A stretch of 64,000 nt of DNA from an uncultured Planctomycetales bacterium (GCA_964542785.1 CAZIUK010000003.1:12946-76945); one strand, 5' to 3'; counted from the first letter of the stretch, positions 32,629 to 59,340 are shown. Notes: generated by a model not told the origin, from the sequence alone. A program made the numbers and translations.

Positions 32629-32666
32629 GGGGACAGCGACTTTTTTATCAAAAAGTCGCTGTCCCT
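32629..32666. repeat. REP-like palindromic element GGGGACAGCGAC-T6atcA5-GTCGCTGTCCCT
   Basis: Exact family members also at 36657, 36819-36872, 38526, 53391-53449, 55076, 55700 and 59281-59340. Confidence 0.85.
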
Positions 32667-32670
32667 ATTT

Positions 32671-34611
32671 ATGAAATGGGGTATCTGCCTATTTTTATTA
32701 TTTTTGCTGATAGCGCCTTTAGGGGCTTTTATTTTTGCGCAAGGCGATATTGATTATGATGAACAGATAGATAAGATTTCTTTAGATTTAAAGAATGTTG
32801 AAATTGTAGAGCTTCTGCGCATACTTTCTCTTAAGACAAAAAAGACAATTGTCCCCAGCAAAGATATCTCAGGGCGCGTTACTATTTACCTTAATAACGT
32901 CTCTTTTAATGACGTTTTAGATATAGTCCTTTTAACTCAAGGCCTGGCTTTAAACAAAAAAGATAATATTTATTATGTTATGAGCGAAGCTGAATTTAAA
33001 AAAATTTTCGGCCGGGATTACATTGACAATAGAAAGGTAGAGACGGTAAAGCTTGCTTATGCTAAGCCCTCGGTAGTTTTTAATGCCTTAGGCCAGTTAA
33101 AATCAGATCTGGGGAAATTAGTCGTAGATGAATCAAGCGGGACGGTTATTCTTATAGATATTCCCGAAAAACTTTCTCTGATGAAAAAGATGATAAATGA
33201 AATGGACCAGCCATTGACAACCAAGGTCTACAACCTTAACTACATTAAAGCTGCTGATGCTAAAACTCAAATAACTGCCGCTATTACGCAAGGCACAGGA
33301 GAGGTTATAGTAGATGAAAGAAGCAGTAAAGCTATTGTTTCAGATTTATCTAAGAAAATGGATAAGATAGGTATGCTTGTACGCGAGATAGACGAAGAAT
33401 CGCGCCAGGTTTATGTGGAGGCTGATATTGTAGAGCTTAGTTTAAGCGATAAGTTTGAGCGCGGCATAGATTGGGAGAAGGTTTATACCTCTGCGGCTAT
33501 GGATGGATTAACCTTTGCCGGTTATTTCCCTGCTACATTAGCGCAGTTTCAAAAAATATCCGTTGGCACTTTAGCCGTGGATCACTACAAGGCCATATTA
33601 AATTTTCTTAACACTTACGGCAAGACGAATATCATCTCTCAGCCTAGGATAGCAGTTGTTAATAATGAAGAGGCAAATATTATGATTGGCGTGCGTGAGG
33701 CTTATATAACACAGACGCAGAGTCAGGCTACTTCCACTACGGTTACTTCGGAAACGGTAGAGTTTATTGATGTTGGCGTTAAGCTTAAAATATCCCCAAG
33801 GATAGGCTCTGATGGTTTTATCACTATGAAACTTAAACCTGAGGTAAGCTCTGTAAAGGAGACAGTAGAGACTTCTTTAGGCAGCCGTATTCCGATAGTC
33901 CAGACTTCTGAGTCAGAGACGACGGTAAAGGTTAAGGATGGGACGATGATTATGATTGCCGGGATGACTAAGATTGAAAATGTAGATGCGATTAAGGGTT
34001 GGCCAGTGCTTTCTAAAATTCCCTTTCTTGATATATTCTTTGGCAATCGTACCAGCGAGAAAAAGAGAACAGAGGTTATAGTCTTTTTGACTCCGAGAAT
34101 AATGCGCAGTGATGAAGGCTTAAGAGGATTAGAGATTGCTAAGATTCTCCCTAAGGAATATCTGCCTGAGAAGCTGCAGGTTAAGATAGACAGGGACCAG
34201 AAGATAGATGACGCTTTGTTTGAGACTGAGGAGAATCCGCAGGAATTACTTACGGCGCGCGATTATTATTTTAAGGGGTTAGAGTCGCAGGCATCTTTGG
34301 ATAATAAAGAGGCCATACGTTATTTTAAGAAGGCTATAGAGTTAGATAGTAAATATGCCGCGGCTTATAACAATTTAGGAATTGCTTATGAGAAGGAGTT
34401 TATGCCGGAAAAAGCAGAAGAGGCGTATCTTCAGGTTATATCTATGGACCCTTCTTTTGTCTCTGCTTATTCTAATTTAGCCTTACTTAATGAAGACCGG
34501 CTTGATTATGCCCGGGCGCTTATTTATTGGAGAAAACGAGTCCTTTACGGAGACCCTAATGATGAGTGGACTAAACAGGCTGTTCAAAGGGTTAAGGAGC
34601 TTAGCCGTTAA
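32671..34611 (+). CDS. Second secretin paralog with a C-terminal TPR extension (secretin fused to a pilotin/MshN-like TPR domain)
   Basis: Likely start MKWGICLFLLF (signal peptide), just after the REP element. Secretin core IPFLDIFFGNRTSEKKRTEVIVFLTP. C-terminal TPR repeats (AIRYFKKAIELDSKYAAAYNNLGIAY...). Confidence 0.8.
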   Translation: MKWGICLFLLFLLIAPLGAFIFAQGDIDYDEQIDKISLDLKNVEIVELLRILSLKTKKTIVPSKDISGRVTIYLNNVSFNDVLDIVLLTQGLALNKKDNIYYVMSEAEFKKIFGRDYIDNRKVETVKLAYAKPSVVFNALGQLKSDLGKLVVDESSGTVILIDIPEKLSLMKKMINEMDQPLTTKVYNLNYIKAADAKTQITAAITQGTGEVIVDERSSKAIVSDLSKKMDKIGMLVREIDEESRQVYVEADIVELSLSDKFERGIDWEKVYTSAAMDGLTFAGYFPATLAQFQKISVGTLAVDHYKAILNFLNTYGKTNIISQPRIAVVNNEEANIMIGVREAYITQTQSQATSTTVTSETVEFIDVGVKLKISPRIGSDGFITMKLKPEVSSVKETVETSLGSRIPIVQTSESETTVKVKDGTMIMIAGMTKIENVDAIKGWPVLSKIPFLDIFFGNRTSEKKRTEVIVFLTPRIMRSDEGLRGLEIAKILPKEYLPEKLQVKIDRDQKIDDALFETEENPQELLTARDYYFKGLESQASLDNKEAIRYFKKAIELDSKYAAAYNNLGIAYEKEFMPEKAEEAYLQVISMDPSFVSAYSNLALLNEDRLDYARALIYWRKRVLYGDPNDEWTKQAVQRVKELSR

Positions 34612-35965
34612 CTTAAAACCAAAGAAGAGCTTTTTTCAGGAGAAACTCCTCCTCTTTTCTTTTTTCATCCTTATTTTTAGCACCTTTCTTATAGGATCTG
34701 TTGGTATATCCAAAATATATTGGTTTAATGCTAAAGTTAAAGATTTAGCCCAACATAACCTTAAATTAGAGTCCGCAGTTCTTGAGATGAGGATAAGGAA
34801 TGCTAATTTTGCGATGGGGGTGCGTAACTATGTTTTTTGGCGCGCTTCACGCTACTTGCAGTCTGTATCCATTGCCGGAGACTTAGATAAGATTTTTATT
34901 TCGGTAGAAGATTTTGAAGAGCATCTTAAAGCGTATCGCCAGAGTTCTTATCTAAAGGAGCAGAGGGATTGGGCAGATGAAGTAGCTTTAGCTTTTGATG
35001 GGGTTGTCCAGCAAGGCAAGAGGCTTGTTGAGCTGCTTGGAAAAGAAGAACCGGGAAAGATAAGCGAGCTTATAAACAGCCAGTTGATGAGCTTTGAGAA
35101 TAATGTTTACCGAATTGATGAATTTTTAGATAAGGCGATGGGCAAGTCTAATCTTGCTGAGGTAGAGCGCCAGATGCTTATTACAGCTCAGGATAAGGAG
35201 CAGGCTATTAGTTTTTTGAAGGTAAGCCTTATTGTATCTATTCTTATGGGGTTAGTTATTGCGTCTGTGGTATATCGCAGGATAGTCCGGGAAAAAGCTT
35301 ACCGCCAGAAACTCTTTGACCGGATTGTAAATCTTGAGGAGGACGAGCGTAAGAAGCTCTCTACCGCGGTTCATGATGAGATGGGCCAAGACTTAAGCGC
35401 CCTTAAGATTTATTTAGGGTTAATTTCTCAAGAGCTGCCGGATATAGCTGAAGATACTAAGAAAAAGCTTGATGAGTGCAAAAAGATCGCTTCCGGGCTT
35501 ATCGAGAAGAGCCATAATATTTCTTTTCTTCTCAGGCCCCCGGAGTTAGACGAGGTAGGGCTTTTAGAGAGCATAGAATCGCTTCTTCTTGAGGCTAAAC
35601 ATTTAACGGGGATAGAGTATTCATTTCAGAAGCCTAAGCTTTTGCTGGATTGTTCGGCAGAGAGGAGTCTTTTGCTTTACCGCGCCTCTCAGGAACTTTT
35701 AACCAATATGATAAAATATGCAAAGGCAAAAAATGTGGTTTTACGTTTAAATAGGATCGGTGATTCCGCTCAGCTTTTTTATTATGATGATGGTTGCGGG
35801 TTTGATCTTGCAAAGTTAAAGTATAAATTATTGCGCCGCAGAGAGGATAAGTTTGGCTTGGGGTTATTGGGCCTGAAAGAAAGGGTGGAGCTTTTAGGCG
35901 GGGATATAAAGATAAATTCGTCTTTGGGGGGAGGCACGACTATTATAGTCAATTTGCCGCTTTAA
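34559..35965 (+). CDS. Sensor histidine kinase (HisKA_3 / NarX-DegS type)
   Basis: Two TM helices around a ~190-aa periplasmic domain; H-box AVHDEMGQDLSALKIYL; HATPase_c G-boxes. The only in-frame start codons (34490, 34508, 34559, 34562) overlap the 3' end of the secretin-TPR gene, so the start is uncertain. Confidence 0.75.
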   Translation: MMSGLNRLFKGLRSLAVNLKPKKSFFQEKLLLFSFFILIFSTFLIGSVGISKIYWFNAKVKDLAQHNLKLESAVLEMRIRNANFAMGVRNYVFWRASRYLQSVSIAGDLDKIFISVEDFEEHLKAYRQSSYLKEQRDWADEVALAFDGVVQQGKRLVELLGKEEPGKISELINSQLMSFENNVYRIDEFLDKAMGKSNLAEVERQMLITAQDKEQAISFLKVSLIVSILMGLVIASVVYRRIVREKAYRQKLFDRIVNLEEDERKKLSTAVHDEMGQDLSALKIYLGLISQELPDIAEDTKKKLDECKKIASGLIEKSHNISFLLRPPELDEVGLLESIESLLLEAKHLTGIEYSFQKPKLLLDCSAERSLLLYRASQELLTNMIKYAKAKNVVLRLNRIGDSAQLFYYDDGCGFDLAKLKYKLLRRREDKFGLGLLGLKERVELLGGDIKINSSLGGGTTIIVNLPL

Positions 35966-35967
35966 TC

Positions 35968-36609: not shown

Positions 36610-36615
36610 TCTTAT

Positions 36616-36643: not shown

Positions 36644-36656
36644 AGGAGAAGGGAAA

Positions 36657-36669
36657 GGGGGACAGCGAC
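36657..36669. repeat. REP half-site GGGGGACAGCGAC (solo)
   Basis: Matches the repeat family. Confidence 0.7.
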
Positions 36670-36791
36670 TATTTATAAGAGTAATATTTATAATAAAATA
36701 GAGTAGTTTTACGATTGTTATTTTAGGATAAATATAATATACTTAAGGTACAGGTTAAAAATAAAAAATGGCAGGTATAATGAAAATAATA

Positions 36792-36815: not shown

Positions 36816-36818
36816 AAA

Positions 36819-36872
36819 GGGGACAGCGACTATTACTATTTTTGCGCTATGATAAAAAAAGTCGCTGTCCCC
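36819..36872. repeat. REP element GGGGACAGCGAC-30 nt-GTCGCTGTCCCC spanning the start codon of the downstream gene
   Basis: The right arm encodes residues 3-8 (KKVAVP) of the signal peptide. Confidence 0.85.
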
Positions 36873-39338
36873 ATTTTGGTTGCGTGTTTTTTTGTTGTCG
36901 CAGCGCAGGCAGAGGTCTTGGTAATTAAAGCTCCCTTAACTTGGGGGCTTGATAAATCCGCAGAATACCCTTTGCCAAAAGTATTAAACGGTATTTATAC
37001 AACTGACCAGTTTGTAGCTACTGAAGGACAAGTTAGCGCTATTACGATGAATTGGGAATCAAGGGGCGCTATATCAATGGAGGTAAGCGCTGATAATGGG
37101 CTGCATTATACTCCGGTAATAAATGGCGTTCCTTTAGAGAGCGGTTTTGTAAGTGGAGATAGGATTCGCTGGCGGGCACAAGCGCTAAATGAGGATGCGC
37201 AGTTAACAGCGGTGAATCTTTCTTATTCTGATACATCCGGAGTAATAGGGGATTTTGGCCAGCCACTTTTAAGCGGATTTATGTACCGTAAAGAATTTAT
37301 AGTGCGCAATGATTCTAGAGAAGATTTATACAATTATCAGATGAAGCTAAGAATAGGGGAAAGTGAATTAGCCAAGGATGCTGATATCTGCCTTTCTAAA
37401 AAAGCAAAAGAGGATTTTAGCGATATAAGAATTAGCGCATCTGATGGTAAGCGTATTTTATCCTATTATCTTGAAAGCATAGAAGGCGAGCTTCCAGGAA
37501 AGCGCAGTGCTGTAATTTGGGTTAATATTCCTCAACTGCCAAAAGAAAAAGATTTAAAGCTTTACCTATATTATGGGAATCCGCAGGCTTTAAGTTTATC
37601 AAGCGGCGAGCAGACGTTTGATTTTTTTGATGATTTTAAAGACCCTGCCAAGAGCAATGAGAAATGGATAACCTATACAGAAAAAAACGGTACCTTGCAA
37701 TTAAAAAATGGGGAAATTAAGCTTGATGCAGCCGAAGCCATTACAAAAGATTTTCTTTTTAAAGAAGGAATTGTTGAGTATCCCGTAGAGATTGAGAGCG
37801 GTTTTGAAAACAGTTTAAACTTGCGTGTCCAGAATGGTAACTCTTATGATATTCCGCTTTGGTCGGGTTATTCTTCTTTATACAAAGGTGCAGAGCATTG
37901 CATTGCTGTAGAGGGGACAGTAAGAAATAATGACACAACTGCTCTACCTTCTTTTGCCGGAAATAGGTATTACTACCGTTTTGAATATTTTAATGGTAAT
38001 ATAGTCTTTAGCCGTTTTGATGCTTTGACTAAAGAAAAGCAGGCAGAGGCAGTCTTTAAGTCTGATTCTTTGCAAAAAATAGGCTATCTGTCTTTGCGTT
38101 CCGGAGGTGACGGGAATGGCAAGAATGTTATTCGTTTTGGCGCTATACTTGTGCGTAAAGCTGCTTTAATCAAACCGTATTTTGTTTCAGCAGGAAAAGA
38201 AGAGCAACTCTCTTTGCCTATTTTTTCCGGTACAACTCTTTCTTCTTTTGGGAGCCTTACTTTGGCCAAAGGGGCAATGAGCGGGCATTATATTTCAAGT
38301 AATATCCGAAGCGAAGACCAGATAAGGATCATGATCCCTGACTGGGATATTGATTCTCTTGGAGGAGAGTTTATCTTACATCTTTCTGCTGATGCCGGCG
38401 GGTCATATAAGAAAGGCTGCGAAAAGGGGAAGTATTATTATGCTTCAAAAAAGGATTTTGTCCCCGGGAAAAACTTAAAGATACGCATTGACCTTTTAAA
38501 AGGGGCAGGCTCCGAAGTCGAAAAAGTCGCTGTCCCCTTTGTGAAGGTGGAGCATAGGGCAGGAAAGGTAAATATTATTTCACCTAATGGCAGAGAGGTC
38601 TGGGAGGTAGGAAGCAGTAAGAAGATTAGCTGGAGTGCCTTGGATTACGATGAAACTTATCTTTTTGATTTAGCTTACTCTGTCAATGGAGGAAAGGATT
38701 ATATTGAGATTATAGCCAATAAAGATAATGATGGAGTTTATACTTGGGTTGTCCCGGATAAAATTACTAAAATCGCAAAGATAAAGATATCTGATTCTTT
38801 GGATAAAGGTATTTATGATCTTTCCGATGCTTATTTTTCTATTGTAGCTAGAGAAGATTTAAGCATTCAGGAAGAGAAAAAAGAAGAAGCAGGGGTAGTA
38901 GTGCAGGCAGCGCTAAAAGATAAAGCCAGTAAAGAGAGCAAAGATAAGAAAGATAAAGTTACTAAAGAAAGCAAAAAGAAGAAAGATAAAGTTAGCAAAG
39001 AGAACAAAAAGTTGCCGGGGAAAAATCTTTATGATCTTTTAATTAAGATAGGCGATAGCAGGTCTTCCTACAGCGAGGGGGATATTGTTATCTTAAGGCC
39101 TTCAGGTTATATTTGGAGCGTTGAAGAGAGGGAGAAGTTTTTGATTGCGCAGGTATACCTAACTGAAAAGCAGGCTGAGGAATTAACCTCTCCTTTAAAA
39201 ACAAAGGATGGAGAGATATTAAGCCGCAGGAAATATAGGATTAACTTGCTTAAGCAGGGGCTTAAAGGTTTGACAGGGTCAATTAAAAGGCCAAAGGGCT
39301 CTTTTGAGGCAGGGGTTATTGAGGATAAGGCAAATTAG
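36849..39338 (+). CDS. Secreted DUF2341/LamG-like surface protein with a Lys-rich low-complexity tail
   Basis: Start MIKKVAVPILVACFFVVAAQA (signal peptide); the ORF-track start at 36768 adds an artefactual poly-Asn extension. IRISASDGKRILSYYLE...AVIWVNIPQL...LYLYYGNPQA resembles the DUF2341 signature. KDK/KESKKK repeats near the C-terminus. Confidence 0.55.
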   Translation: MIKKVAVPILVACFFVVAAQAEVLVIKAPLTWGLDKSAEYPLPKVLNGIYTTDQFVATEGQVSAITMNWESRGAISMEVSADNGLHYTPVINGVPLESGFVSGDRIRWRAQALNEDAQLTAVNLSYSDTSGVIGDFGQPLLSGFMYRKEFIVRNDSREDLYNYQMKLRIGESELAKDADICLSKKAKEDFSDIRISASDGKRILSYYLESIEGELPGKRSAVIWVNIPQLPKEKDLKLYLYYGNPQALSLSSGEQTFDFFDDFKDPAKSNEKWITYTEKNGTLQLKNGEIKLDAAEAITKDFLFKEGIVEYPVEIESGFENSLNLRVQNGNSYDIPLWSGYSSLYKGAEHCIAVEGTVRNNDTTALPSFAGNRYYYRFEYFNGNIVFSRFDALTKEKQAEAVFKSDSLQKIGYLSLRSGGDGNGKNVIRFGAILVRKAALIKPYFVSAGKEEQLSLPIFSGTTLSSFGSLTLAKGAMSGHYISSNIRSEDQIRIMIPDWDIDSLGGEFILHLSADAGGSYKKGCEKGKYYYASKKDFVPGKNLKIRIDLLKGAGSEVEKVAVPFVKVEHRAGKVNIISPNGREVWEVGSSKKISWSALDYDETYLFDLAYSVNGGKDYIEIIANKDNDGVYTWVVPDKITKIAKIKISDSLDKGIYDLSDAYFSIVAREDLSIQEEKKEEAGVVVQAALKDKASKESKDKKDKVTKESKKKKDKVSKENKKLPGKNLYDLLIKIGDSRSSYSEGDIVILRPSGYIWSVEEREKFLIAQVYLTEKQAEELTSPLKTKDGEILSRRKYRINLLKQGLKGLTGSIKRPKGSFEAGVIEDKAN
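38526..38537. repeat. Solo REP half-site GTCGCTGTCCCC inside the coding sequence
   Basis: Read in-frame as KVAVPF within the DUF2341-like protein. Confidence 0.7.
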
Positions 39339-50000: not shown

Positions 50001-53000
50001 GCTGCAAGCGGTTGACCTTTATGATAATATCTGCAACGGCCTTAATGGTTCTTCCGGATTCTCTGGTTCAAAGAAGGTTACCTGGAGTTTAAGCGGAGCT
50101 TCTGATGGACCTGAGGGGAATGTTATTGATGAGTTTGTCAGTCCTGTAGAGTTTAGCTTAGGGGTATCCACTACTACTTTAAGCGCAAAGCTCTACCGTG
50201 CACAGGATACCACCATTACCGCTGCTATTTCTGCTTTAATAGGGGTAAATGTTGCTTCGAATACAATTACAGTTGAGCCTGGGGCAGTAGCAAAGCTAAG
50301 GTTCTCTCAGGAGCCTGCGGCTTCTTCCATTACCAGTCAGGCTTTAGAGGTACAGCCTAAGGTTGCGGTAAGTGATCAGTATGGTAACCCTGTTTCTACT
50401 ACCTCGGCTAACGTAAGCATTGCTGCTTCAACTAGCAATGATTCATTTGTACCTGTGGTTAATGGAGTATTAAGCGCTATTGGAGGACTTACAGCATCTA
50501 CAGTTAACGGAGTAGCTTCTTTTAGCGGAGTAACCTATAATTATCCTGAGACTATTTACCTTCGCGCCACAGTCGCAGGGGTAAGCCTGGTGCCGGTATT
50601 CTCTTCAGGTATAACATTTAGTACCGCTCAGGAAACAGCTCTCTCTGTTACTACACCAGGGCCTACTGCTATTTCTTCTCTTGCCTATACTACTGCAGAC
50701 AGAGTTGGGGTGCTTAATTTTAGGGTTGTTGATGGGGGGACTGATGGTTTCTCCAGTAAGATACGCCAGGTGATTGTAAAGCGCAACACCTCTGATACTA
50801 CCGGCGGGTGGACAAATTACCTGCAGGGAGTCTATATTACCGATGGAGCAACGCAGGTGGTTGGGAGGATAGAGGATGATCAGATTATTTTTGGCTTGGG
50901 GGGAAATGATATTTATGATGTTACTAACGGCACGACTAAGAATTTTACTGTGAGCGTATTTTTGAAGAATCCGCTCCCCTTAGATTCAGATAATAAGGTT
51001 TTGGGTTTCAAGCTTGATCCGGCTACAGATATAGTATTTGGTTCACCTAGCTCTAGGCTTGTCTCTTCTTCTGTGATGAGTTCAACTCCAAAGATCTCGG
51101 TTGTGGCTACTGATTTTGCTATTTTTGGCTCTCCTACCATGAATGCCGGAGATACCCAGCCGATTACGCTTAAGGCCGTAGATATACTGGGCAATATTGA
51201 TAAGGATTATGTTGGAGAAAAAACTTTAGTTTTTAGCGGACCAAGTATAACGAGTAAAGGAAATGAGCCCATCGAGACGACCTCAAATATTCCTTTTGGT
51301 ACGGATACCCCGGTTTCTTTTACCAACGGCCAGAGCTCATCTACCGTCGGGATTAAACTCTTTAAAGCCGAAACTGCTTATGTTAAGGCAGCCGATATTT
51401 CTGCGGGGATAACTACTCCTAATCAGAAAGCCTTGATTGTTACGGTTTACGGCGGAGCTGCCACGGGTTTAAGTTGGCTTACCCAGCCGGTGGGCGTAGT
51501 TGTCGAAAATGCCCCGTGGAAAGAGTTTAGTATTTCAGTTACCGATGCTTATGGCAATACCTCATCCAGCAGTACTGAGGTAACCGTAGCTCCTTCTAAC
51601 GGCAGTATCTCTACAGGTTCGCAGGCAACAGTTACCGCTCAATCGGGAATAGCCACATTCTATAATTTTGCGGTAAATGGTCTTAATGATGAAGAGAAGA
51701 TCACTTTAAGCGCATCAGCAAGCGGGGTAGCCGGTACCGGTCCTTCCAATGAAGTGCAGGTATTTAAGGTTTATAAGGTAACGGTCTTTGTAAAAGATTA
51801 TACTAGCGCTAGTAATCTTACTGAATGCGCTTTGGATGCCACATCTAACGGAGTAGTCGTAGATGGTTTTCCAAAGACAGGCAACAGCCCGTTTACTTTT
51901 AACTTGCCCTACGGGACGTATACCTTCCGGGTCTCTAAGGAAAAATATGTTGATGAAAACACCGAAAAGACAGCTGGTGTTGCCGCGGATTACCTGGACG
52001 GAGTATATGATGCAAAGATTACCTGGTCTTTGACTGCTACAAGTTTAGTTGAGGCTACTGCTGATTATAAAGCACAGAGCGCTTTTGTTTATGATGAAAG
52101 TACTGACAAGCTTTCTATCCGCGTCTGGCTGGAGAAGCGCGGGAAGATGGTAGTTAATGATGATGTTAATATTTTAGGTAATGCGGTTGTAGATATCTAT
52201 AATGATTCTACCGGGGGATGGCTTAAGTCAATTACCTTAGAGCCTCCTGCTGCGTCTAATACTGTAAATGGAGTTTATTTTAAGGAGATACCTAATGTAG
52301 TTTCTGTTGACGATGATTTTAACCTTGTTGCAGGCAAGACCTATTTTGCCCGTGTTGTCATTAATTATGGTGGGCTTACTGGTACAGGCAGAAGTTATGA
52401 AGGAGGAGCGACCTTTAGTGTTACTATAAACGAGAATCTGCGCGCAGTTACTAATTCTATTCAGACGGTTGCTACTAATATCGCCGGGCAGACTGCGGCA
52501 ATTCAAAAGACGATAAAGGATGAGATAGAAGGCCAGATTACTAGTGTTGTTGTGCCTAAGATTACTGATGTAAAGACTGAGACATCTAAGATTCTTTCTG
52601 CCACAGGCACAGAGTCTTTGCAGGATAAGATTGCCGAGGTAAAAACACAGGTAGTCCAGGAGGTTCAGCCGCATATTAAATCCGGTATATTAAATGGAGA
52701 GACTGCGGTAAGAACTGGCTCTAAACTAGCTGTTCGTTATCGAACTGATTCTGGACTTTCTCCAACGATATCCGTATATAGCCCCAAGAACAATCTTCTT
52801 ATCTCCGACAGGGCTATGGCAGAGATAGGGATAACGGGAATCTATGAGTATAATGTAACATTTTTACCGGCTTGGGGGAGGGGATCCTTTACTATTGTTT
52901 GTTCAGAGCCGGTAAAAGGAACAGCTGATGCCTTTGTGCTTAAGGTAAGTGATTCGGATATAGAGGATATATCAAGTAGTGTCTCTGCTGTTTTAGGTAG

Positions 53001-53370
53001 CACCTCTGGCATTACCAACCTTAAGAAAGTAACCGAAACCTTAAACGCGCAGTTTAGTGATATGGATAAGGCTATTGCCCAAATCAGCAAGAATATTACT
53101 GGAAAGGTTGAAGAGGTAAAAGGGGCTGCCGTTGAACTTGCCGGCGTATTTAAGCAGCTTGAGGATATGAGTAATACCATTAAGAGCTTAGGAGGGACAG
53201 CCGGTATAAATATTGATAAGATTTACGAGGTATCTAAAGATAAGCAGGAGGATATTAGTTATATTAAGAATAAGAGCGAAGAGCTTAAGGCGGCGATGGA
53301 GCTTAACCAAAAGATGATAGAGAATGTTGCTAAGAAGCCAGTAGTTCAAACCTGGTTTGAATTCAAGTAA
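44023..53370 (+). CDS. Giant (3115 aa) cell-surface protein with repeated Ig-like/beta-sandwich modules and a C-terminal coiled-coil-like region
   Basis: Signal peptide; long Thr/Ser/Val/Gly-rich modules. Residues ~230-872 are repeated almost identically at ~873-1515. Followed by a REP hairpin. Confidence 0.7.
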   Translation: MKKILKVLLIGGLALWGYFESASLALGANLSISSASDQTFISEEAPKDAQAITITDVSGSGIIVSSGLRILIPDSFGMQWHGAMLRDDSVTDTSNADFSVIAAQIISAGVTLESSDAGATGSVEVNFTSINSIPADAKIVITFPDNFVFNSKSPTLASSATMSGDFSVSITGQVITVTRNSTSASSAGSHLITLTNIKNPIRPGTTGAYSLKIQTLAGFDIDVNNDLAASTIVPAATSRITLNSPDDMTAGAARAAYTLTRYDEYGNLSTQEEEVFDISTTSTGDNAVFYNDATASEAGNIITSITIPQGSSSVNFWYDDTKMGAYTIAAIKSDQPEITVSDGINVKHAEPDHLRFVSDIPTADAKQVSVQFNLPQLAAVDRYDNILTNDYGAAAYSGNKAITYSLSGQRDAPDGNGTDLFYSDNVASAKVNFTNGLSTNALSAKLYRAQNTVISPADSNLPSESLPSNEIIVNPATATKLVFKQQPSGSAIVNSAFLQQPVVAIQDHYGNQTLDIFPIKLYDSIRSEFPYADAPGILTSDHEDNTLNAVAGEASFSGVEYNASGVIYLYAQGLGAGSNVNPVFSNEITLATSVTTMVKAADTPVADFNLTPTNDTLEKKFKVLKFKVTDAGEDKTPTLIDQIKIAVSGTGGHASTDIAWAGLYVGEEKVADAASITDDFITFGQEPNSDSTAGIYSVPDSSSVEFTVYIHMKPDKLSALDGQSYIFTTDEDRVGVDRGASSQMTASSGSIAAVTGTIKVDMTHLEIVTEEGASTLTVSAGVPVELLVRATDANKNIDSDYNGSHTLVFSGLNSVGTLYPKIESVLFGYNITISFSGGISASQGVTLTPYKSEEGIIVVQESGKSYSQHGLTATIVPAATSRITLNSPDDMTAGAARAAYTLTRYDEYGNLSTQEEEVFDISTTSTGDNAVFYNDATASEAGNIITSITIPQGSSSVNFWYDDTKMGAYTIAAIKSDQPEITVSDGINVKHAEPDHLRFVSDIPTADAKQVSVQFNLPQLAAVDRYDNILTNDYGAAAYSGNKAITYSLSGQRDAPDGNGTDLFYSDNVASAKVNFTNGLSTNALSAKLYRAQNTVISPADSNLPSESLPSNEIIVNPATATKLVFKQQPSGSAIVNSAFLQQPVVAIQDHYGNQTLDIFPIKLYDSIRSEFPYADAPGILTSDHEDNTLNAVAGEASFSGVEYNASGVIYLYAQGLGAGSNVNPVFSNEITLATSVTTMVKAADTPVADFNLTPTNDTLEKKFKVLKFKVTDAGEDKTPTLIDQIKIAVSGTGGHASTDIAWAGLYVGEEKVADAASITDDFITFGQEPNSDSTAGIYSVPDSSSVEFTVYIHMKPDKLSALDGQSYIFTTDEDRVGVDRGASSQMTASSGSIAAVTGTIKVDMTHLEIVTEEGASTLTVSAGVPVELLVRATDANKNIDSDYNGSHTLVFSGLNSVGTLYPKIESVLFGYNITISFSGGISASQGVTLTPYKSEEGIIVVQESGKSYSQHGLTATINAGAASNIALLSGNNQSGKIAAPLLQAFVVAVTDVYGNGIGSGTGVDFAILSQPEGATGALLSTISGVTDANGHAFTTLTVGSLAGDYQVTASSAGLSGSPVTFIATGLLPSAIQLLSGDNQSKQVVSALDDPLVVKIVDSTGIPIPREKVDFTISSYPEGAVGQALLSGSVVTDDNGQAQTSFTLGDKAGVYKVTVNCGSLTAVDFNFNATARAPYQVALRGPVSVKAGEVSTKFTVSIEDEYNNPSNLSQATVFSLTNNPSRPSGIFYSNSDGTLAINSLTVAKGTNSASFYYKDTITGMANITATRTSGQSLIQGISSQEVTVIPSDAYRFTIVGNTDTIETGESKVLTITAYDNLGNVKSDYTGNVNVLFSGASASPAPSSKKATASNHLSQDIEFGKTTSLNFINGVAVSTLKFYKVEDVNIKITSGSIVTAEEDSLSFTVRHGQADHLKFGGNLPALQEAGVEFDFETTLQAVDLYDNICNGLNGSSGFSGSKKVTWSLSGASDGPEGNVIDEFVSPVEFSLGVSTTTLSAKLYRAQDTTITAAISALIGVNVASNTITVEPGAVAKLRFSQEPAASSITSQALEVQPKVAVSDQYGNPVSTTSANVSIAASTSNDSFVPVVNGVLSAIGGLTASTVNGVASFSGVTYNYPETIYLRATVAGVSLVPVFSSGITFSTAQETALSVTTPGPTAISSLAYTTADRVGVLNFRVVDGGTDGFSSKIRQVIVKRNTSDTTGGWTNYLQGVYITDGATQVVGRIEDDQIIFGLGGNDIYDVTNGTTKNFTVSVFLKNPLPLDSDNKVLGFKLDPATDIVFGSPSSRLVSSSVMSSTPKISVVATDFAIFGSPTMNAGDTQPITLKAVDILGNIDKDYVGEKTLVFSGPSITSKGNEPIETTSNIPFGTDTPVSFTNGQSSSTVGIKLFKAETAYVKAADISAGITTPNQKALIVTVYGGAATGLSWLTQPVGVVVENAPWKEFSISVTDAYGNTSSSSTEVTVAPSNGSISTGSQATVTAQSGIATFYNFAVNGLNDEEKITLSASASGVAGTGPSNEVQVFKVYKVTVFVKDYTSASNLTECALDATSNGVVVDGFPKTGNSPFTFNLPYGTYTFRVSKEKYVDENTEKTAGVAADYLDGVYDAKITWSLTATSLVEATADYKAQSAFVYDESTDKLSIRVWLEKRGKMVVNDDVNILGNAVVDIYNDSTGGWLKSITLEPPAASNTVNGVYFKEIPNVVSVDDDFNLVAGKTYFARVVINYGGLTGTGRSYEGGATFSVTINENLRAVTNSIQTVATNIAGQTAAIQKTIKDEIEGQITSVVVPKITDVKTETSKILSATGTESLQDKIAEVKTQVVQEVQPHIKSGILNGETAVRTGSKLAVRYRTDSGLSPTISVYSPKNNLLISDRAMAEIGITGIYEYNVTFLPAWGRGSFTIVCSEPVKGTADAFVLKVSDSDIEDISSSVSAVLGSTSGITNLKKVTETLNAQFSDMDKAIAQISKNITGKVEEVKGAAVELAGVFKQLEDMSNTIKSLGGTAGINIDKIYEVSKDKQEDISYIKNKSEELKAAMELNQKMIENVAKKPVVQTWFEFK
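44712..48569 (+). repeat. Near-perfect tandem duplication of a 1929-bp (643-codon) unit inside the giant gene
   Basis: Copy 1 ~44712-46640, copy 2 ~46641-48569. I see only one difference (GCA/GCG, synonymous). The antisense ORFs 44849/46778, 45285/47214, 45612/47541 and 46107/48036 are exact duplicates offset by 1929. Confidence 0.9.
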
Positions 53371-53390: not shown

Positions 53391-53449
53391 GGGGACAGCG
53401 ACTTTTTTGATAAAAAGTCGCTGTCCCCCTAGAAAAAGTCGCTGTCCCC
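53391..53449. repeat. REP element GGGGACAGCGAC-T6gatA5-GTCGCTGTCCCC-ctagaaaaa-GTCGCTGTCCCC; probable terminator of the giant gene
   Basis: One left arm and two right arms; stable hairpin 20 nt after the stop codon. Confidence 0.85.
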
Positions 53450-53495
53450 TTTAAAAGGGTGACATATTTGAAAAATATGGTAAAATAAAATCAAG

Positions 53496-54266: not shown

Positions 54267-55046
54267 ATGAAAAGGGAATTTGTTATTTTATTAGTAATTT
54301 TATTTTTTTTTGTGCATAGTTTAGGCGCGCAGGCTTCAGAAGGGCTTTGGAATACTGAAAAGACTCAGCATTTTATAATATATTACCAGTCTGCCCAGGC
54401 AAGTTTTATTCGGGATTTGGCTTATGCCGCTGAAAGGTATTATAACAGCATTATTGATGAGCTTGGTTTTAGGCGTATGGATTTTTGGAGTTGGGATAAC
54501 CGGGCTAAAATCTATATATACAATGGATTTGAAGATTATAAAAAAGAGGCTGACCGTAAAGATTGGTCTGGTGCGGTTGTTTTTGTGGATACCCGTACTA
54601 TTAAAAGTTTTTTAGGGCAGTTTGATTTTTTTGATTCTATCCTTCCGCATGAGATGACCCATATAATATTCAGGGAATTTGTGGGTAGAGAAGCAATCCT
54701 TCCTTTGTGTATAGATGAAGGAGTTGCAAGCTCTCAGGAGAAAGGCCATTTGCATGAGAGGTTATCTTTGATAAAGAAACTTATTTTGCAGGGAAAATAT
54801 ATGCATTTTGATAAATTATTCAATATCTACCAGGCTAAGGGTATAAGCCCTCAGGAGTTTTATGCCCAGTCAGCCTCGCTCGTTGTTTTTTTAATAAAAC
54901 AATATGGAAGAGAACGTTTTGTTGATTTTAGCCGTAAATTAAGGGACGGAATGCTTTGGGATAAGGCTTTATTAAGCGTATATAAGTTTAAGAGCTTTGC
55001 AGATATGGAGAATGAGTGGAAAGATTTTATTTTGAGAAATTTCTGA
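54267..55046 (+). CDS. Secreted putative HExxH zinc metallopeptidase-like protein
   Basis: Signal peptide; ILPHEMTHIIF (HExxH) with a downstream Glu (CIDEG). Confidence 0.4.
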   Translation: MKREFVILLVILFFFVHSLGAQASEGLWNTEKTQHFIIYYQSAQASFIRDLAYAAERYYNSIIDELGFRRMDFWSWDNRAKIYIYNGFEDYKKEADRKDWSGAVVFVDTRTIKSFLGQFDFFDSILPHEMTHIIFREFVGREAILPLCIDEGVASSQEKGHLHERLSLIKKLILQGKYMHFDKLFNIYQAKGISPQEFYAQSASLVVFLIKQYGRERFVDFSRKLRDGMLWDKALLSVYKFKSFADMENEWKDFILRNF

Positions 55047-55075
55047 AATACTGCTATAATAAACAGTGATATAGT

Positions 55076-55087
55076 GGGGACAGCGAC
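55076..55087. repeat. REP half-site GGGGACAGCGAC flanking the RAYT remnant (left)
   Basis: Family match; inverted relative to the half-site at 55700. Confidence 0.8.
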
Positions 55088-55214
55088 TTTTTGACTTTTT
55101 ATTTTTAGCTCTTTGATAATTTTTACTTAAATTTTTAAGTTAGATTTCCTTCCTTGCCGCGTCTATTGATAGTGAAGGTGATAGATGATATAGGGCCTAA
55201 AAGGAAGGGGTGGT

Positions 55215-55650
55215 ATGGGGAGAATAGCCAGAATAGTAGGAGTAGGGTTGCCGCACCATATTACACAGAGAAGGAATTACCAATAATGTTGCTCATATGC
55301 GTTATTCGCAGTATTTTAATAATAAATTAAACCAGCGAGGGCATCTTTGGCAGGGAAGATTTTATTCTTGTATTTTGTCGCAAGCGCACCTTATGCTTGC
55401 TGCTTGCTATATAGAGCGTAATCCTGTACGCGCGGGTTTAGTAGATCAGCCATGGCATTGGCAATGGTCAAGTGCTGCCAGCCATACAAACCGTAAGATT
55501 GATGAGTTGGTTAATTCTGATGAGTTGTTAAAGCTTGTAGGTATGTCAAGCTCTTCTTGGGAGAAATATATAGAAACAAAGGAAGAAGAGAGTTTTTTGC
55601 AGGATATAAGGAAACATACTTTTACCAGTCGTTCTTTTGGCGTGGTTTAG
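55215..55650 (+). pseudogene. Degraded REP-associated tyrosine transposase (RAYT/TnpA_REP, IS200-like Y1 transposase family)
   Basis: N-terminal fragment MGRIARIVGVGLPHHITQRRNYQ ends in a stop at 55284-55286 (TAA). The C-terminal fragment (55297-55650) is in another frame and carries GHLWQGRFYS...YIERNPVRAGLV...WQWSS. The central HuH-motif region is missing. Confidence 0.7.
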
Positions 55651-55699
55651 GTTATTTTAAGGAGCAGGTCTAAGAAGGATAGGGTTGGGTTAAAAAAAA

Positions 55700-55711
55700 G
55701 TCGCTGTCCCC
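55700..55711. repeat. REP half-site GTCGCTGTCCCC flanking the RAYT remnant (right)
   Basis: Family match. Confidence 0.8.
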
Positions 55712-55735
55712 GTTTTAGTATGGAGGTTATTTAAG

Positions 55736-56614
55736 ATGCATAAAGATGTAGATATTTTAGTTATCAAAGGAGAAGAAAAAGCCACAGGGTTGATTGAATC
55801 TACGGTTCGTTCTGCAGGCTACAATGTTTGGTTGGCCAATGATCATAATGAAGGCTTGAAGCTTTTGCGTTCTAATACTTTCCCGATAGTAATTACAGAA
55901 GTACTTTCTGTAAAGATGGATGTTGCTCACTTTTGTAGAGAGGTCAACAAACTAAGCCCGTTGACTAACGTGATTGTTGTTGCCCTCTATTCTTTAATTA
56001 ATAACGCTATTAAGGCTATGGAGGCAGGGGCTTACGGGTATATTACTAAGCCACTAAATGTTTCTGAAATACGTATAGTCGTGGAGAGGGCAGTAGAGAG
56101 GTACTTTCTGTTTTCTGCCAGGGAAGATAAGGATTATTTTGTTGATTTAGCTGTAAGGGATGGGCTTACCGGACTTTTTAATCGGCGCTATTTTAATGAA
56201 TTAATAAAAATAGAGTTTAGCCGCATTAAGCGGTTACCGTCGTTTCTCTCTCTGCTAATTCTTGACATAGATAATTTTAAAAACTATAATGATACGCAAG
56301 GACATAGCGCAGGCGACATTTTATTAAAGAATGCCGCTAAAATTTTTAAGAGTTCTGTGCGTACCGTAGATATAGTTTTTCGCTATGGGGGAGAGGAGTT
56401 TGCAGTAATACTTCCTAGTACAGATAAAAAAGGGGCTCAGATTATTGCAGAGAGGATACGTATGCAGGTGAGCCTGTATCTACCTACTACTGTAAGTATA
56501 GGCATTTCTACTGCCCCAGAAGATGCCGAGGAGATAAGCCTATTGATAGAGAAGGCGGATAAGGCTTTGTATCAAGCGAAGAACAGTGGTAAAAATAAGT
56601 GGTGTGTTGCATGA
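55736..56614 (+). CDS. Response-regulator receiver plus GGDEF diguanylate cyclase
   Basis: GGEEF active site (RYGGEEFAVIL); RxxD-like I-site context; N-terminal receiver-like domain. The 3' end overlaps the atpC start by 16 nt. Confidence 0.85.
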   Translation: MHKDVDILVIKGEEKATGLIESTVRSAGYNVWLANDHNEGLKLLRSNTFPIVITEVLSVKMDVAHFCREVNKLSPLTNVIVVALYSLINNAIKAMEAGAYGYITKPLNVSEIRIVVERAVERYFLFSAREDKDYFVDLAVRDGLTGLFNRRYFNELIKIEFSRIKRLPSFLSLLILDIDNFKNYNDTQGHSAGDILLKNAAKIFKSSVRTVDIVFRYGGEEFAVILPSTDKKGAQIIAERIRMQVSLYLPTTVSIGISTAPEDAEEISLLIEKADKALYQAKNSGKNKWCVA

Positions 56615-56835
56615 GGGTTCTTATACTAGAGCCTAAAGGGACTATTTGGGAGGGGATAGCAGAGCAAGTGACCCTTCCGGCTAAAGAAGGTCAAATGTGT
56701 GTGCTTGATTTTCATCAGCCTTTTGCAGTTAGGTTGATAAATGGCAGCATTGTTTTTAGCAATAAAAGAATAAAAATAAAAGACGGGGTTGCTTATATGC
56801 GGTCTAACAATTTGACGGCCTTTGTGCAAACTTAA
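56599..56835 (+). CDS. atpC: F-type ATP synthase epsilon subunit, short form (beta-sandwich only)
   Basis: 78 aa resembling the epsilon N-terminal domain; lacks the C-terminal helical hairpin; position in the atp cluster. Confidence 0.55.
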   Translation: MVCCMRVLILEPKGTIWEGIAEQVTLPAKEGQMCVLDFHQPFAVRLINGSIVFSNKRIKIKDGVAYMRSNNLTAFVQT

Positions 56836-56840
56836 AAAAT

Positions 56841-57053
56841 ATGAGTAGTATAGGATTAATTATCGTTATGTTTTTAAGCACTGCCGGCCCGGCTGCAGTT
56901 ATAGCTTTTGTAGGATATGCTGCGGTTAAGGCGGTCGCGCGTAATCCTTCCGCGAGCCCAAAGATATTTACTGTTATGATTCTATCATTTATATTCGCAG
57001 AGGCGATAGCGATTTTAGCCCTTCTGATTATATATAATTTGTTTACCAAATAA
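56841..57053 (+). CDS. atpE: F-type ATP synthase c subunit
   Basis: 70-aa helical hairpin; polar loop ARNPS (compare ARQPD); ion-binding Glu in helix 2 (FAEAIAILALLI). Confidence 0.75.
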   Translation: MSSIGLIIVMFLSTAGPAAVIAFVGYAAVKAVARNPSASPKIFTVMILSFIFAEAIAILALLIIYNLFTK

Positions 57054-57060
57054 GATAAAT

Positions 57061-57774
57061 ATGTTGATTAACCTTTTGATTTTGCAAATTATTACCTTTA
57101 TAGGGGTTGTCTTACTTTTACGTTTTATATTTACCCGCCACTTAAAATCCGCGTTATCCAGGCTTAATGCCTTGCATGGGGAAAATTTATCTAAAGAAGA
57201 AGAGCTTAAGGAGGAGATCAGGCGTGTTAAGGAGCAAAGCGAAGCCTTTATTAAACAAAGCAGGGAAGAAGCAGAATTAATCATTGCTGAGGCTAATAAG
57301 AATGCTCAGAGAATTAGGATGAATATTGAGGAGCAGGCTAGAAATCAGGCAGAGAAGATCATCAGTGATTCTCGCATAGATAGCGAGAAAATTCAAAAGG
57401 AAGCACTTAAGAATATACAGGGACAGAGTATAGAGTTAGCCTTAAGGATGATTTCAGAATTGCTTACTGAAACAGATAAGGTAGCTTTGCAGTATGAGTT
57501 AGCCAACGGTATTATTGAAGAGATCTCCCGATTGCCTAAAGAACAGTTTAGTGTTCCCGGGGGGGAAGTCAACATTACTTCCAGCTTTCCGCTGTTAGAA
57601 AGGCAATGCAATAAAATAAAGAGTATTCTTACAGATAAATCAGGTTCGCCTGTAAATTTAAATCAAAAGTTAGACCCGGAGATTATCGGCGGGCTTATAG
57701 TTGAAATGGGGGGCATGGTCATCGACGGGACATTAAGAAGCAGGCTACAGAGGGTTGCTGAGGGGTTTAAATAA
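57061..57774 (+). CDS. atpF: ATP synthase b subunit fused to a delta (OSCP) C-terminal-like domain
   Basis: N-terminal TM helix plus a long charged helix typical of b. C-terminus EIIGGLIVEMGGMVIDGTLRSRLQRVAEGF matches the delta C-terminal motif (compare [24 protein letters not shown]). Confidence 0.65.
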   Translation: MLINLLILQIITFIGVVLLLRFIFTRHLKSALSRLNALHGENLSKEEELKEEIRRVKEQSEAFIKQSREEAELIIAEANKNAQRIRMNIEEQARNQAEKIISDSRIDSEKIQKEALKNIQGQSIELALRMISELLTETDKVALQYELANGIIEEISRLPKEQFSVPGGEVNITSSFPLLERQCNKIKSILTDKSGSPVNLNQKLDPEIIGGLIVEMGGMVIDGTLRSRLQRVAEGFK

Positions 57775-57778
57775 GCTT

Positions 57779-59251
57779 ATGGCTGTTGAGGCGTTAGATA
57801 TTAAAGAAGTAGGCAAGGTTGAGGAGCTTAAGCAGGGGATCGTTAAAATTAGTGGTTTGCCTAATTGCGCCTTTGGGGATGTTATAACTTTTGATAATTC
57901 ATCTTTTAGCATTGATAGTATGCTTAAGGGGATGATTATTGAGTTTGATTCTAAATACGCCTTTGGCATTGTTTTTGGGGATGAGCATAGCATAAAAGTA
58001 GGGGATATTGTTTCTAGCCGTAAACATTTATTAAGCGTACCGGTTGGAGATAGTTTTATAGGTAGGGTGGTAGATGCCTTAGGTAATCCTTTGGATGGTA
58101 AAGGTAAGATAGAGAAGGATGAAGATTATCCGGTTTTTCGGCAAGCTGCCGGGATAATGGAACGCGAACCCATTTCTCAGACTTTGCATACGGGTATTAA
58201 AATTATAGATATGTTGATTCCTTTAGGCAAGGGGCAACGTGAGCTTGTTGTTGGGGATAGGCAAATAGGCAAAACTTCTATTGCCTTGGATATGATAATA
58301 AATCAAAAAGGCAGAGATGTTATATGTATATATTGCTGGATTGGAGGCAGTATATCTGCCTTTAATAAGGTTATTCAGACTATAAAAGAGCACGGGTGCA
58401 TGGATTTTACTTTAGCTGTTTGTGCTTCTGCCGGGTCATCGGTTAGCGAACAGTATATTGCTCCTTATACTGCCGCGGCTTTAGGCGAGTATTTTATGTA
58501 TAAAGGCAAGGATGTGTTAGTAGTTTTTGATGATTTGACTAAGCATAGCTGGGTTTATAGGCAGATGTCTTTGTTACTGGAGCGTGCCCCTGGGAGAGAA
58601 GCTTACCCCGGAGATATATTCTTTCTTCACTCTCAATTAATGGAACGTGCTGGGAGGCTTAAAAAAGAATTTGGCGGAGGAACTATGACTTTTTTACCTT
58701 TGGCTGAAACACTGCAAGGAGATATTACAGGCTATATCTGTTCTAATATCGTTTCAATGACTGACGGGCAAATCTATTTAAATACTGGGTTATTCCAAGA
58801 AGGTTTTAAGCCAGCAATTGATTTAGAGTTATCTGTATCTCGTATTGGCAGTAAGGTACAGTCTCCGGCCATTAAGAAGTTAAGCGAAGGATTGCGTTAT
58901 GAATATGTACATTACCGTTCTTTGTTGAGATTGACGCGCCTGCGGACAAAATTAAGCCCCGAGGCTACGCAACAGATTCAGCGCGGTAGGGCGCTCTATG
59001 AATTGCTTATACAAGAAAATTTTTCTCCTGTTTCTCAAGCAGAAGAGATTGTTTCTTTTTACGCTTTTCAACAAAAAATCCTCGAGTCGATAAATTTGGA
59101 CGAGGTAAAATTGTTTAAGAAAAACTTTTTCCCTTATTTAAGTAAAAATAATCAAGATTTGGTGGATATTTTGAATGATAAAGGTGAACTTACAGAAGAA
59201 GTCAAGCAGCTTTTAGACAAGGCGATAAAAGGTTTTTTTGCGCTTTCATAA
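57779..59251 (+). CDS. atpA: F-type ATP synthase alpha subunit
   Basis: P-loop GDRQIGKTSIALDMIINQ; full alpha architecture. The ATG at 57779 follows the atpF stop; the ORF-track start at 57755 overlaps atpF. Confidence 0.9.
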   Translation: MAVEALDIKEVGKVEELKQGIVKISGLPNCAFGDVITFDNSSFSIDSMLKGMIIEFDSKYAFGIVFGDEHSIKVGDIVSSRKHLLSVPVGDSFIGRVVDALGNPLDGKGKIEKDEDYPVFRQAAGIMEREPISQTLHTGIKIIDMLIPLGKGQRELVVGDRQIGKTSIALDMIINQKGRDVICIYCWIGGSISAFNKVIQTIKEHGCMDFTLAVCASAGSSVSEQYIAPYTAAALGEYFMYKGKDVLVVFDDLTKHSWVYRQMSLLLERAPGREAYPGDIFFLHSQLMERAGRLKKEFGGGTMTFLPLAETLQGDITGYICSNIVSMTDGQIYLNTGLFQEGFKPAIDLELSVSRIGSKVQSPAIKKLSEGLRYEYVHYRSLLRLTRLRTKLSPEATQQIQRGRALYELLIQENFSPVSQAEEIVSFYAFQQKILESINLDEVKLFKKNFFPYLSKNNQDLVDILNDKGELTEEVKQLLDKAIKGFFALS

Positions 59252-59263
59252 ATGGGATAAATG

Positions 59264-59340
59264 AAATGGGGGACGAAATGGGGGACAGCGACTTTTTTCT
59301 AAAAAAAGTCGCTGTCCTCCCATAAAGTCGCTGTCCCTCC
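59264..59340. repeat. Compound REP element (GGGGACAGCGAC-T6ctA7-GTCGCTGTCCtCC-cataaa-GTCGCTGTCCCtCC) inside the atp cluster
   Basis: Family match with degenerate right arms; preceded by the partial direct repeat aaatggggga. Confidence 0.8.

Follow-up and report, generated by a model that had tools for sequence, protein, structure and literature searches.

The repeat loci and the broken transposase gene

The DNA analysed here, a stretch of 64,000 nt deposited for an uncultured Planctomycetales bacterium (GCA_964542785.1, CAZIUK010000003.1:12946-76945; hereafter the window), carries a dispersed family of short inverted repeats and, among them, the remnant of a tyrosine transposase gene whose homologues are annotated as Omnitrophota. 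The original prediction for this DNA had described a dispersed palindromic family cognate to a degraded transposase of the type associated with repetitive extragenic palindromes (REP-associated tyrosine transposase, RAYT), with some copies in coding sequence, and this core was borne out by our analysis.

Both strands of the window were searched for the 12-mer GGGGACAGCGAC with at most one mismatch. Fourteen matches were found at eight loci, against 0.06 expected, and none of the shuffles reached 14. The matches start at 32629, 32655, 36658, 36819, 36861, 38526, 53391, 53417, 53438, 55076, 55700, 59281, 59308, and 59327. The eight loci are those predicted, and their positions were all correct except one, 36657, which should read 36658. 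Reading of the sites together with a repeat finder gave a full arm of 17 nt, with a left form (L), GGGGACAGCGACTTTTT, and a right form (R) that is its complement, AAAAAGTCGCTGTCCCC. A scan of the window with up to four mismatches added no arms to the known copies.

At four loci an L arm, a loop, and an R arm follow one another (A, 32629-32666; C, 36819-36872; E, 53391-53428; H, 59281-59319), with an additional R arm at both E and H. The other four are solo arms (B, L at 36658; D, R at 38526; F, L at 55076; G, R at 55700). As predicted, the left and right arms make hairpins: the paired arms form stable stems of 16–20 bp, and folding as single-stranded DNA gave −19 to −27.5 kcal/mol with z scores of −6.7 to −9.7. 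The single 17-nt arm is not self-complementary and contains no internal palindrome, so that a hairpin requires two arms. The arm has neither a GTAG nor a CGTC head and is not a classic REP unit, which is an imperfect palindrome of 20–40 bp. A scan of the entire window against Rfam at gathering thresholds gave no match.

The transposase gene, of which the window holds one copy, lies between arms F and G. Frame analysis showed that the remnant consists of a 23-codon N-terminal fragment, a frameshift, and a C-terminal fragment; its translation is MGRIARIVGVGLPHHITQRRNYQ followed by a stop and then, in another frame, NVAHMRYSQYF...GHLWQGRFYS...YIERNPVRAG. We then aligned it to the sister genome JBASUY01, which has about 90% nucleotide identity and is syntenic with the window from 25.9 to 63.5 kb. 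The alignment revealed a 161-nt deletion that removes the HUH motif in the window copy and creates a TAA at its junction (55283/55284), besides a GAG to TAG change at 55648 and a 5-nt deletion ahead of the R arm. The frames, the deletion, and the nonsense codon confirm the degraded gene predicted at 55215-55650. A look-up of the window's own ORF gave only two short Logan contigs (L115 and L116), and the same lesions were present in both at 100% identity. Because two independent assemblies carry them, they are not an assembly error. To judge from its sequence, the transposase is dead in this genome, with its HUH motif deleted and a nonsense codon besides. The search for an intact copy that the prediction had proposed was successful: the orthologous site of JBASUY01 holds an intact 225-aa open reading frame (ORF) with the HUH motif (NHVHF) and the catalytic tyrosine (YIERNPVRA), and P0001, a protein from an ENA assembly, is the same intact enzyme with one residue different.

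The joined fragments of the window copy matched the NCBIfam model REP_Tyr_transpos at E 2e-8 in its C-terminal third only, which is below the cut-off because the protein is truncated, and a Pfam search with the fragments gave nothing significant. There were 2372 homologues, mostly Omnitrophota 'transposases' of about 223 aa with PF01797. The intact orthologues matched Pfam Y1_Tnp (PF01797) at E 1e-13 to 1e-16. Their best NCBIfam model was REP_Tyr_transpos (E 1e-18 to 1e-20, 64.5–71.1 bits), against E 1e-3 to 1e-5 and 17–26 bits for transpos_IS200. H60, H62, and Y119 are invariant in 29 homologues; the window copy fails in this respect, its HUH being deleted. No PDB match was found for the intact orthologue by phmmer, and a 20-sequence profile gave 4ER8 as the sole match in the PDB, a weak one (E 0.026), so that a fold search was needed to settle the assignment. 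The AlphaFold model of the intact orthologue (pLDDT 80, pTM 0.79) had its best PDB fold match in 4ER8, TnpA-REP bound to a REP hairpin (E 1.9e-7, TM score 0.68 on the target), followed by the IS608 transposase 2A6M (E 1.6e-5) and the IS200 and ISDra2 transposases. The model also has a helical C-terminal extension of about 85 aa, for which no helix-turn-helix (HTH) family of Pfam was found at E≤1. By sequence and modelled fold, the enzyme is closer to RAYT than to IS200 transposases.

Six of the eight loci lie in short spacers right after stop codons (Table 1). Locus A sits in the 65-nt spacer separating two secretin genes, locus B is kept at the equivalent place in the sister genome, and locus H lies between the atpA stop (59251) and the atpG start (59350). 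The copy predicted inside the atp cluster is thus truly between atpA and atpG, and both the sister genome and L118 conserve it.

The other two loci, C and D, overlap the DUF2341 ORF. At locus C, ATG 36849 lies in the loop, and the R arm encodes the KKVAVP of a signal peptide, directly ahead of its hydrophobic core VACFFVVAAQAEV. The sister genome (L086, JBASUY010000022.1, about 4930-4990) has an in-frame 24-nt duplication of the R arm in this signal peptide, giving KKVAVPFLKKVAVPFL (with MIKKVAVPFLKKVAVPFLVV). The gene caller placed the start of the DUF2341 gene at 36780 (MKIINNNNNNNNKGDSDYYYFCAMIKKVAVP..), which would bring the whole hairpin into the ORF. A 38%-identical homologue also has a 29-residue extension ahead of the hydrophobic core, and the three substitutions between window and sister upstream of 36849 all fall at third codon positions of the 36780 frame. 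For these reasons the whole locus C hairpin may be coding. The predicted use of the arm as KKVAVP stands, and its numbering as codons 3-8 depends on which start is taken. The copy predicted to be read in frame at 38526 was found to be so; it uses the same KKVAVP frame, as does the C-terminus of the intact transposase.

Table 1. Repeat loci and transposase-associated features of the window, with the arms of the sister genome JBASUY01 where their number differs.
Feature	Position	Strand	Arms and context in the window	Sister genome
Locus A	32629..32666		L + R (R with 1 mismatch); hairpin −20.7 kcal/mol, z −9.7	L + R + R (21 nt extra)
Locus B	36658..36674	+	Solo L arm, 49 nt past the stop of a LuxR-type response regulator gene	
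Locus C	36819..36872		L, 30-nt loop, R; overlaps 5′ end of DUF2341 gene	L..R + R (24 nt extra, in frame)
Locus D	38521..38537	−	Solo R arm inside DUF2341 gene, in frame: EVEKVAVPFVK	
Locus E	53391..53449		L + R + second R; starts 21 nt past the stop of the 3115-aa gene	
Locus F	55076..55092	+	Left terminal arm, 139 nt 5′ of the transposase start codon	
Locus G	55695..55711	−	Right terminal arm beside the transposase remnant	
Locus H	59262..59340		Partial L, L, R, second R (each R with 1 mismatch); nested hairpin, −27.5 kcal/mol	L + R
Promoter-like site	55032..55060	+	TTGAGA-17-TGcTATAAT, sigma-70-like with extended −10 TG; 11/12 matches	
Conserved leader	55139..55214	+	GTTAGATT, pyrimidine tract, loop CGTCTATTGATAG, purine tract; predicted pairing with ribosome-binding site	
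Transposase pseudogene	55215..55650	+	Y1/HUH tyrosine transposase, RAYT/TIRYT type	

Arms and transposase genes in other genomes

We examined 11 homologous transposase genes in ten other Omnitrophota genomes (retrieved loci are given as L numbers). Ten of the 11 were bracketed by arms with the core GGGACAGCG, and nine had an L arm upstream and an inverted R arm at or overlapping the stop codon. In JAUYEC01 (L046; gene 63% identical) the gene lies between two complete elements whose arms are exactly those of the window, and in L120 it also lies between two complete elements, with the arms TAGGGACAGCGACC. For the first gene of L121 and for L122, L123, and L125, one L arm stands about 100 nt before the gene and one R arm at its stop; in L124 the upstream side has three L arms in tandem, with one R arm at the gene, and L118, with the arms GGGACAGCGCCC, has the R type on both sides. 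The arrangement of locus F recurs in the sister genome and in L121-L125, and a single L arm upstream with a single R arm downstream is shared by the window, JBASUY01, L121, L122, L123, and L125. The final codons of the ORF often come from the R arm, as ..DIKKVAVPILGA before the stop in the intact orthologue (protein end ..KKVAVPILGA) and as ..MVAVPI in P0004. The second gene of L121 (15172-15807), a different Y1 transposase, is flanked by its own repeat, CCAGACCCGCGGTGGA, and another copy of CCAGACCCGCGGTGGA is located downstream of the first gene.

The core GGGACAGCG does not change between genomes, and the 3–4 bases after it do (..CGACT, ..CGACC, ..CGCCC). The arm variant flanking each gene is the variant dispersed in the intergenic spacers of that genome. 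Dispersal of the flanking repeat beyond the gene was seen in the window (12 more arms), JBASUY01, JAUYEC01, L120, L123, and L125; for the first gene of L121 and for L122, only the two flanking arms were seen within 17–21 kb.

A scan of a genome collection with the 17-mer, which also led to the sister genome, gave at least 114 stretches, and the window's own assembly was not among the matches listed. At least two further Omnitrophota genomes contain the motif of the window, one of them in abundance. The original prediction depended on the motif occurring outside the window and on its keeping company with transposase genes elsewhere; both were found, the second in the arms bracketing ten of the 11 homologous genes. 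The identical 17-nt arm also occurs in a different phylum, in metagenome-assembled genomes of Candidatus Firestonebacteria (L036, 4880-4990; L048, 150-260), where it lies within a 52-nt tandem duplication near the contig end.

The transposase slot between Peptidase_MA_2 and RR-GGDEF/atp was found in four lineages, namely the window, its sister (=L117), L118, and L120. The transposase of L118 has 74% identity, compared with 67–89% for the neighbouring genes, and that of L120 has 70%, compared with 54–80%. The transposase thus appears to diverge at about the rate of its neighbours, which would fit the housekeeping-like pattern of RAYTs (PMC5581495). More distant homologues occupy other chromosomal contexts, and one locus has two different genes.

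The repeat is most abundant in our material from JAUYEC01, with 73 arms and about 33 complete elements of 58–60 nt in the 121 kb retrieved, a sample biased by the picking of loci by motif. The element there consists of A5-GGGGACAGCGAC-T7, a core of 20–23 nt, and the inverse arm, and the cores are of two types, found in either orientation. No direct target duplications were found at the JAUYEC01 elements; similar flanks, where present, are inverted complements of each other, as in GGCAATA...TATTGCC. On JAUYEC010000118.1 (L033, 1090-1181) the loop of one GGGGACAGCGAC element encloses a hairpin of a second family, whose arms are GGGGACAGGCAT. These arms have the head GGGGACAG of the main family and a different tail.

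Seven of the eight window loci have orthologues in the sister genome, and the number of arms differs at three of the seven (A, C, and H; Table 1). The extra R arms lie 3′ on the coding strand in both genomes. A general strand or orientation rule for extra arms was dropped, as L125 has both left-left and right-right tandems. Locus D is present in the window only. It was rejected as a simple insertion, since the sister orthologue has an unrelated sequence of nearly equal length at this site. No sign of faster arm decay was found in the genome with the dead enzyme, imperfect arms numbering 3 of 14 in the window and 2 of 15 in the sister.

Certain slots are occupied in more than one lineage. The slot of locus E, after the giant gene, is also filled in the sister; L118 and L120 have other arm variants there, and the slot between atpA and atpG is filled in L118 by its own variant. 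The hairpins of these shared slots are at 1961-1995 and 7956-7997 in L118, at 7582-7640 in L120, and at loci E and H in the window. Lineage-specific arm sites were also found in L118 and L120. In L120 the atpA-atpG spacer contains a 96-aa ORF with a GIY-YIG domain (14421-14711), and mobile DNA appears to have a landing site in this spacer.

Our analysis also identified a conserved leader ahead of the transposase genes. It was present 5′ of nine of the ten homologous genes examined (window, L046, L118, L120, both genes of L121, L122, L123, and L124) and absent from that of L125. The loop conserved across these genes is CGTCTATTAATAG, and the purine tract is the Shine-Dalgarno sequence, which was paired in single-sequence folds of all nine motif-bearing leaders. 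The stems vary in sequence (CCTTCC/GGAAGG, CTTTTTCTCT/AGAGAGGAG, ATCAC/GTGAT). RNAalifold gave no consensus structure for the leader from a MAFFT alignment that left the stems out of register. IS200 has a 5′ leader hairpin that covers the ribosome-binding site, and the leader found here looks like a translational occlusion of the IS200 style.

A promoter-like site ends 16 nt ahead of the left terminal arm. The sister genome and L118 conserve its sequence, yet it overlaps the end of the peptidase gene, including its stop codon, and its conservation may reflect the coding of the peptidase. We tentatively regard it as a putative part of the element. A transcript from this predicted promoter would start with the left arm and finish with the right arm.

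Origin and possible roles of the repeats

Taken together, the repeats are very probably the non-autonomous partners of a resident Y1/HUH transposase acting on single-stranded DNA, of the RAYT/TIRYT ('TIRtron') type. The gene lies between the L arm GGGGACAGCGACTTTTT and the inverted R arm, and short two-arm elements with a small loop or core are scattered in intergenic spacers. By analogy with E. coli TnpA-REP (4ER8) and IS608, the arms would pair into a hairpin in the single-stranded DNA of the replication fork. The enzyme would then bind the hairpin and cut at its foot through a covalent tyrosine link, and the DNA would presumably be rejoined elsewhere without target duplication. Single arms may also be gained or lost locally. 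Since the enzyme appears to be dead in this genome, the eight loci would now be immobile remnants.

Several points weigh against this reading. No arm was found in 1-32 kb of the window, all copies being confined to 32.6–59.3 kb. The 64.5–71.1 bits of the intact orthologues are below the 80-bit cut-off of REP_Tyr_transpos (NF047646), so that these proteins form a diverged branch of the superfamily, outside the curated proteobacterial equivalog. The link between enzyme and repeat is correlative even for TIRYTs in general (PMC3733652). Lastly, the slots after the giant gene, at the transposase flanks, and between atpA and atpG are filled in different lineages despite different arm variants. Simple random transposition does not predict such shared slots, which need site preference, gene conversion, or selection on the hairpins. 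Their occupation by differing arms suggests either concerted change or repeated targeting of the sites.

The same slots bear on a more far-reaching possibility, that the system is a long-standing, vertically inherited partnership between host and element across an Omnitrophota clade and more than a transposase relic. The gene would keep a fixed chromosomal slot, the hairpins would stay at the same operon junctions (after the giant adhesin-like gene and between atpA and atpG), and all copies in a genome would change arm sequence together with the terminal arms of the gene. We consider this doubtful. If true, it would imply that the enzyme actively homogenises the arms or targets preferred sites anew, and the hairpins would serve the host as operon punctuation or mRNA stabilisers, with arms occasionally exapted into proteins (KKVAVP).

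It is improbable that the hairpins are immobile host regulatory elements, such as terminators, stabilising 3′ hairpins of mRNAs, or operon punctuation, to which the transposase relic would be incidental and whose likeness would be due to a common binding protein or to convergent selection. The genes are co-directional, six of the eight loci follow stops in short spacers, the hairpins are very stable, and three slots are filled across genomes with 78–83% AtpA identity despite different arms, all of which such elements would explain. They would not explain why each locus repeats 17 identical bases, why arms lie within ORFs, or why some are solo arms that cannot fold, since selection on structure only would ask for none of these. 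Moreover, arms bracket the transposase in ten other genomes at unrelated chromosomal sites, and arm counts differ between the sister genomes. A role in intrinsic termination is not supported. A consensus terminator scan found no T-run behind any hairpin on the coding strand; its only terminator-like call (32665-32630) is on the empty strand. The repeat had been predicted to serve as the terminator of the giant gene; it is at the right position, but no T-run follows the locus E hairpin. Terminator function is not accepted because no U-tract follows the hairpins on the coding strand.

In the transposase partnership that we favour, any present effect of the repeats would be a by-product. REPs of E. 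coli are barriers to 3′ exonucleases. By analogy, the strong RNA hairpins formed by the coding strand at operon junctions could block such exonucleases, and we regard this as possible; the two arms within genes are simply translated.

A further alternative, that the short elements are miniature inverted-repeat transposable elements (MITEs) moved in trans by a DDE transposase reading double-stranded 17-bp terminal repeats, with the Y1 gene inside one by chance, appears very improbable. The perfect terminal inverted repeats of 17–20 bp round a core of 20–24 nt of two types, about 59 nt in total, do have the appearance of MITEs. On the other hand, direct target-site duplications are missing, the alike flanks being inverted complements, and no DDE transposase was seen beside the arms at any locus, the Y1 enzyme being the only gene always between them. 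Finally, that the 12–17-mer is a DNA uptake signal or a genome-wide protein recognition word, in inverted pairs like the DNA uptake sequence (DUS) of Neisseria, is hardly credible, for although type IV pilus and secretin genes abound in the window and the motif stands singly or in inverted pairs downstream of genes and occasionally within them, the first 32 kb are free of it, the Y1 gene of other genomes is bracketed by it with the arm variant changing together with that gene, and an uptake word would have no use for cores and tandem arms.

Partnership with a resident transposase would extend such repeat systems to the Omnitrophota, an uncultured phylum of very small cells. The two genomes of about 90% identity, one with an intact and one with a dead enzyme, form a natural pair for testing the decay of repeats after enzyme loss. 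The arms are short and open in all frames, which makes them tolerable inside proteins, and the in-frame duplication in the signal peptide is a case of mobile-repeat sequence turned coding. The repeats also have practical consequences, as they break up metagenome assemblies (several JAUYEC01 contigs end in arms) and mislead gene callers at 5′ ends.

Comparison with known systems and neighbouring genes

RAYT-like genes with terminal inverted repeats were named TIRtrons, and their transposases TIRYT, by Di Nocera et al. (2013, BMC Genomics 14:522; PMC3733652). In that work, TIRtrons share a GGGGWSAS motif, have repeats overlapping the ORF ends, and have repeat families, in some genomes only, that occur as singles, dimers, or groups; intragenic REPs were documented as well. 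Quentin et al. (2018, PMC6006769) gave the consensus as GGGG[AT][CG]A[CG] and tied TIRYT to TnpA-REP subclass 2.1. In the original prediction the repeat family matched no recognised REP family; we found that its head, GGGGACAG, fits both forms of this consensus exactly, and that some relatives have TAGGGACAG, with one mismatch.

Like TIRtrons, the system described here has a Y1 gene bracketed by non-palindromic terminal inverted repeats, a 3′ repeat that overlaps the ORF end, and repeats as singles, dimers, and groups that are moderately abundant in some genomes and vary widely between genomes. JAUYEC01 and L120 are exceptions, as they have complete two-arm elements on both sides of the gene. 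TnpA-REP subclass 2.1 is said to have a C-terminal extension similar to Bac_DnaA_C, HTH_23, or HTH_28; Pfam finds no such domain in the enzymes here, which may still belong to the subclass. The fixed syntenic slot, the shared occupied slots, and the leader predicted to sequester the ribosome-binding site are not reported for TIRtrons in PMC3733652 and PMC6006769. We regard the system as a known type of element (TIRtron/TIRYT) newly seen in Omnitrophota; no link of RAYT, REP, IS200, or tyrosine transposase with Omnitrophica or Omnitrophota was found in the searchable literature.

The E. coli REP/BIME (bacterial interspersed mosaic element) system with TnpA-REP (4ER8; Messing et al. 2012, Ton-Hoang et al. 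2012) has the closest solved fold, with a sequence identity to the intact enzyme of about 19%. The two systems also have in common a resident gene that appears to be single, short GC-rich hairpins outside genes at operon junctions, and alternating or tandem clusters of arms. However, each REP of E. coli is by itself a small, imperfectly palindromic unit headed by GTAG, and the gene there stands between two complete REPs. The classic REP/RAYT arrangement that had been predicted for the window therefore holds only in part: inverted arms do flank the gene, but they are single non-palindromic arms and not two complete REP hairpins.

As in the REPIN-RAYT system of Pseudomonas (Bertels & Rainey 2011; Bertels et al. 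2017, PMC5581495), two inverted units round a spacer would constitute the mobile hairpin, the transposase appears to be vertically inherited at a housekeeping-like rate, the flanking 16-mers are over-represented, and gene loss leaves orphan repeats. A REPIN is about 100 nt long and each of its arms is a REP palindrome, whereas the elements here are about 38–60 nt with plain arms. The IS200/IS605 elements (IS608, ISDra2) share with our system the HUH/Y1 fold, presumably a hairpin of single-stranded DNA as substrate, and a lack of target duplications. They differ in that their ends are unrelated subterminal hairpins, not terminal inverted repeats, and that they are multi-copy and move as whole units, whereas the gene described here appears to be single and fixed, with multiplication confined to the short repeats.

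The window has about 39% G+C and a steady positive GC skew, and all of its real genes are on the plus strand. These genes include secretins, a two-component system, the DUF2341 protein, the 3115-aa protein, an MA-type peptidase, an RR-GGDEF protein, an F-type ATPase cluster, and type IV pilus proteins. The DUF2341 protein carries, close to its C-terminal end, a lysine-rich KDKxxKExK unit encoded by three tandem 33-nt repeats (38916-39014). The ORF of the 3115-aa protein (44023-53370) holds an internal tandem duplication of 1929 nt; the repeat pair reported within it (44708-45007 and 46637-46936) covers 300 nt at 99% identity, and other matching pairs have the same 1929-nt spacing. In the ATP synthase cluster (56599-61599) no a subunit was seen, and the gene order is epsilon, c, b-delta fusion, alpha, gamma, beta. 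The b-delta fusion is a single ORF of 237 aa that contains both the ATP-synt_B and the OSCP domains.

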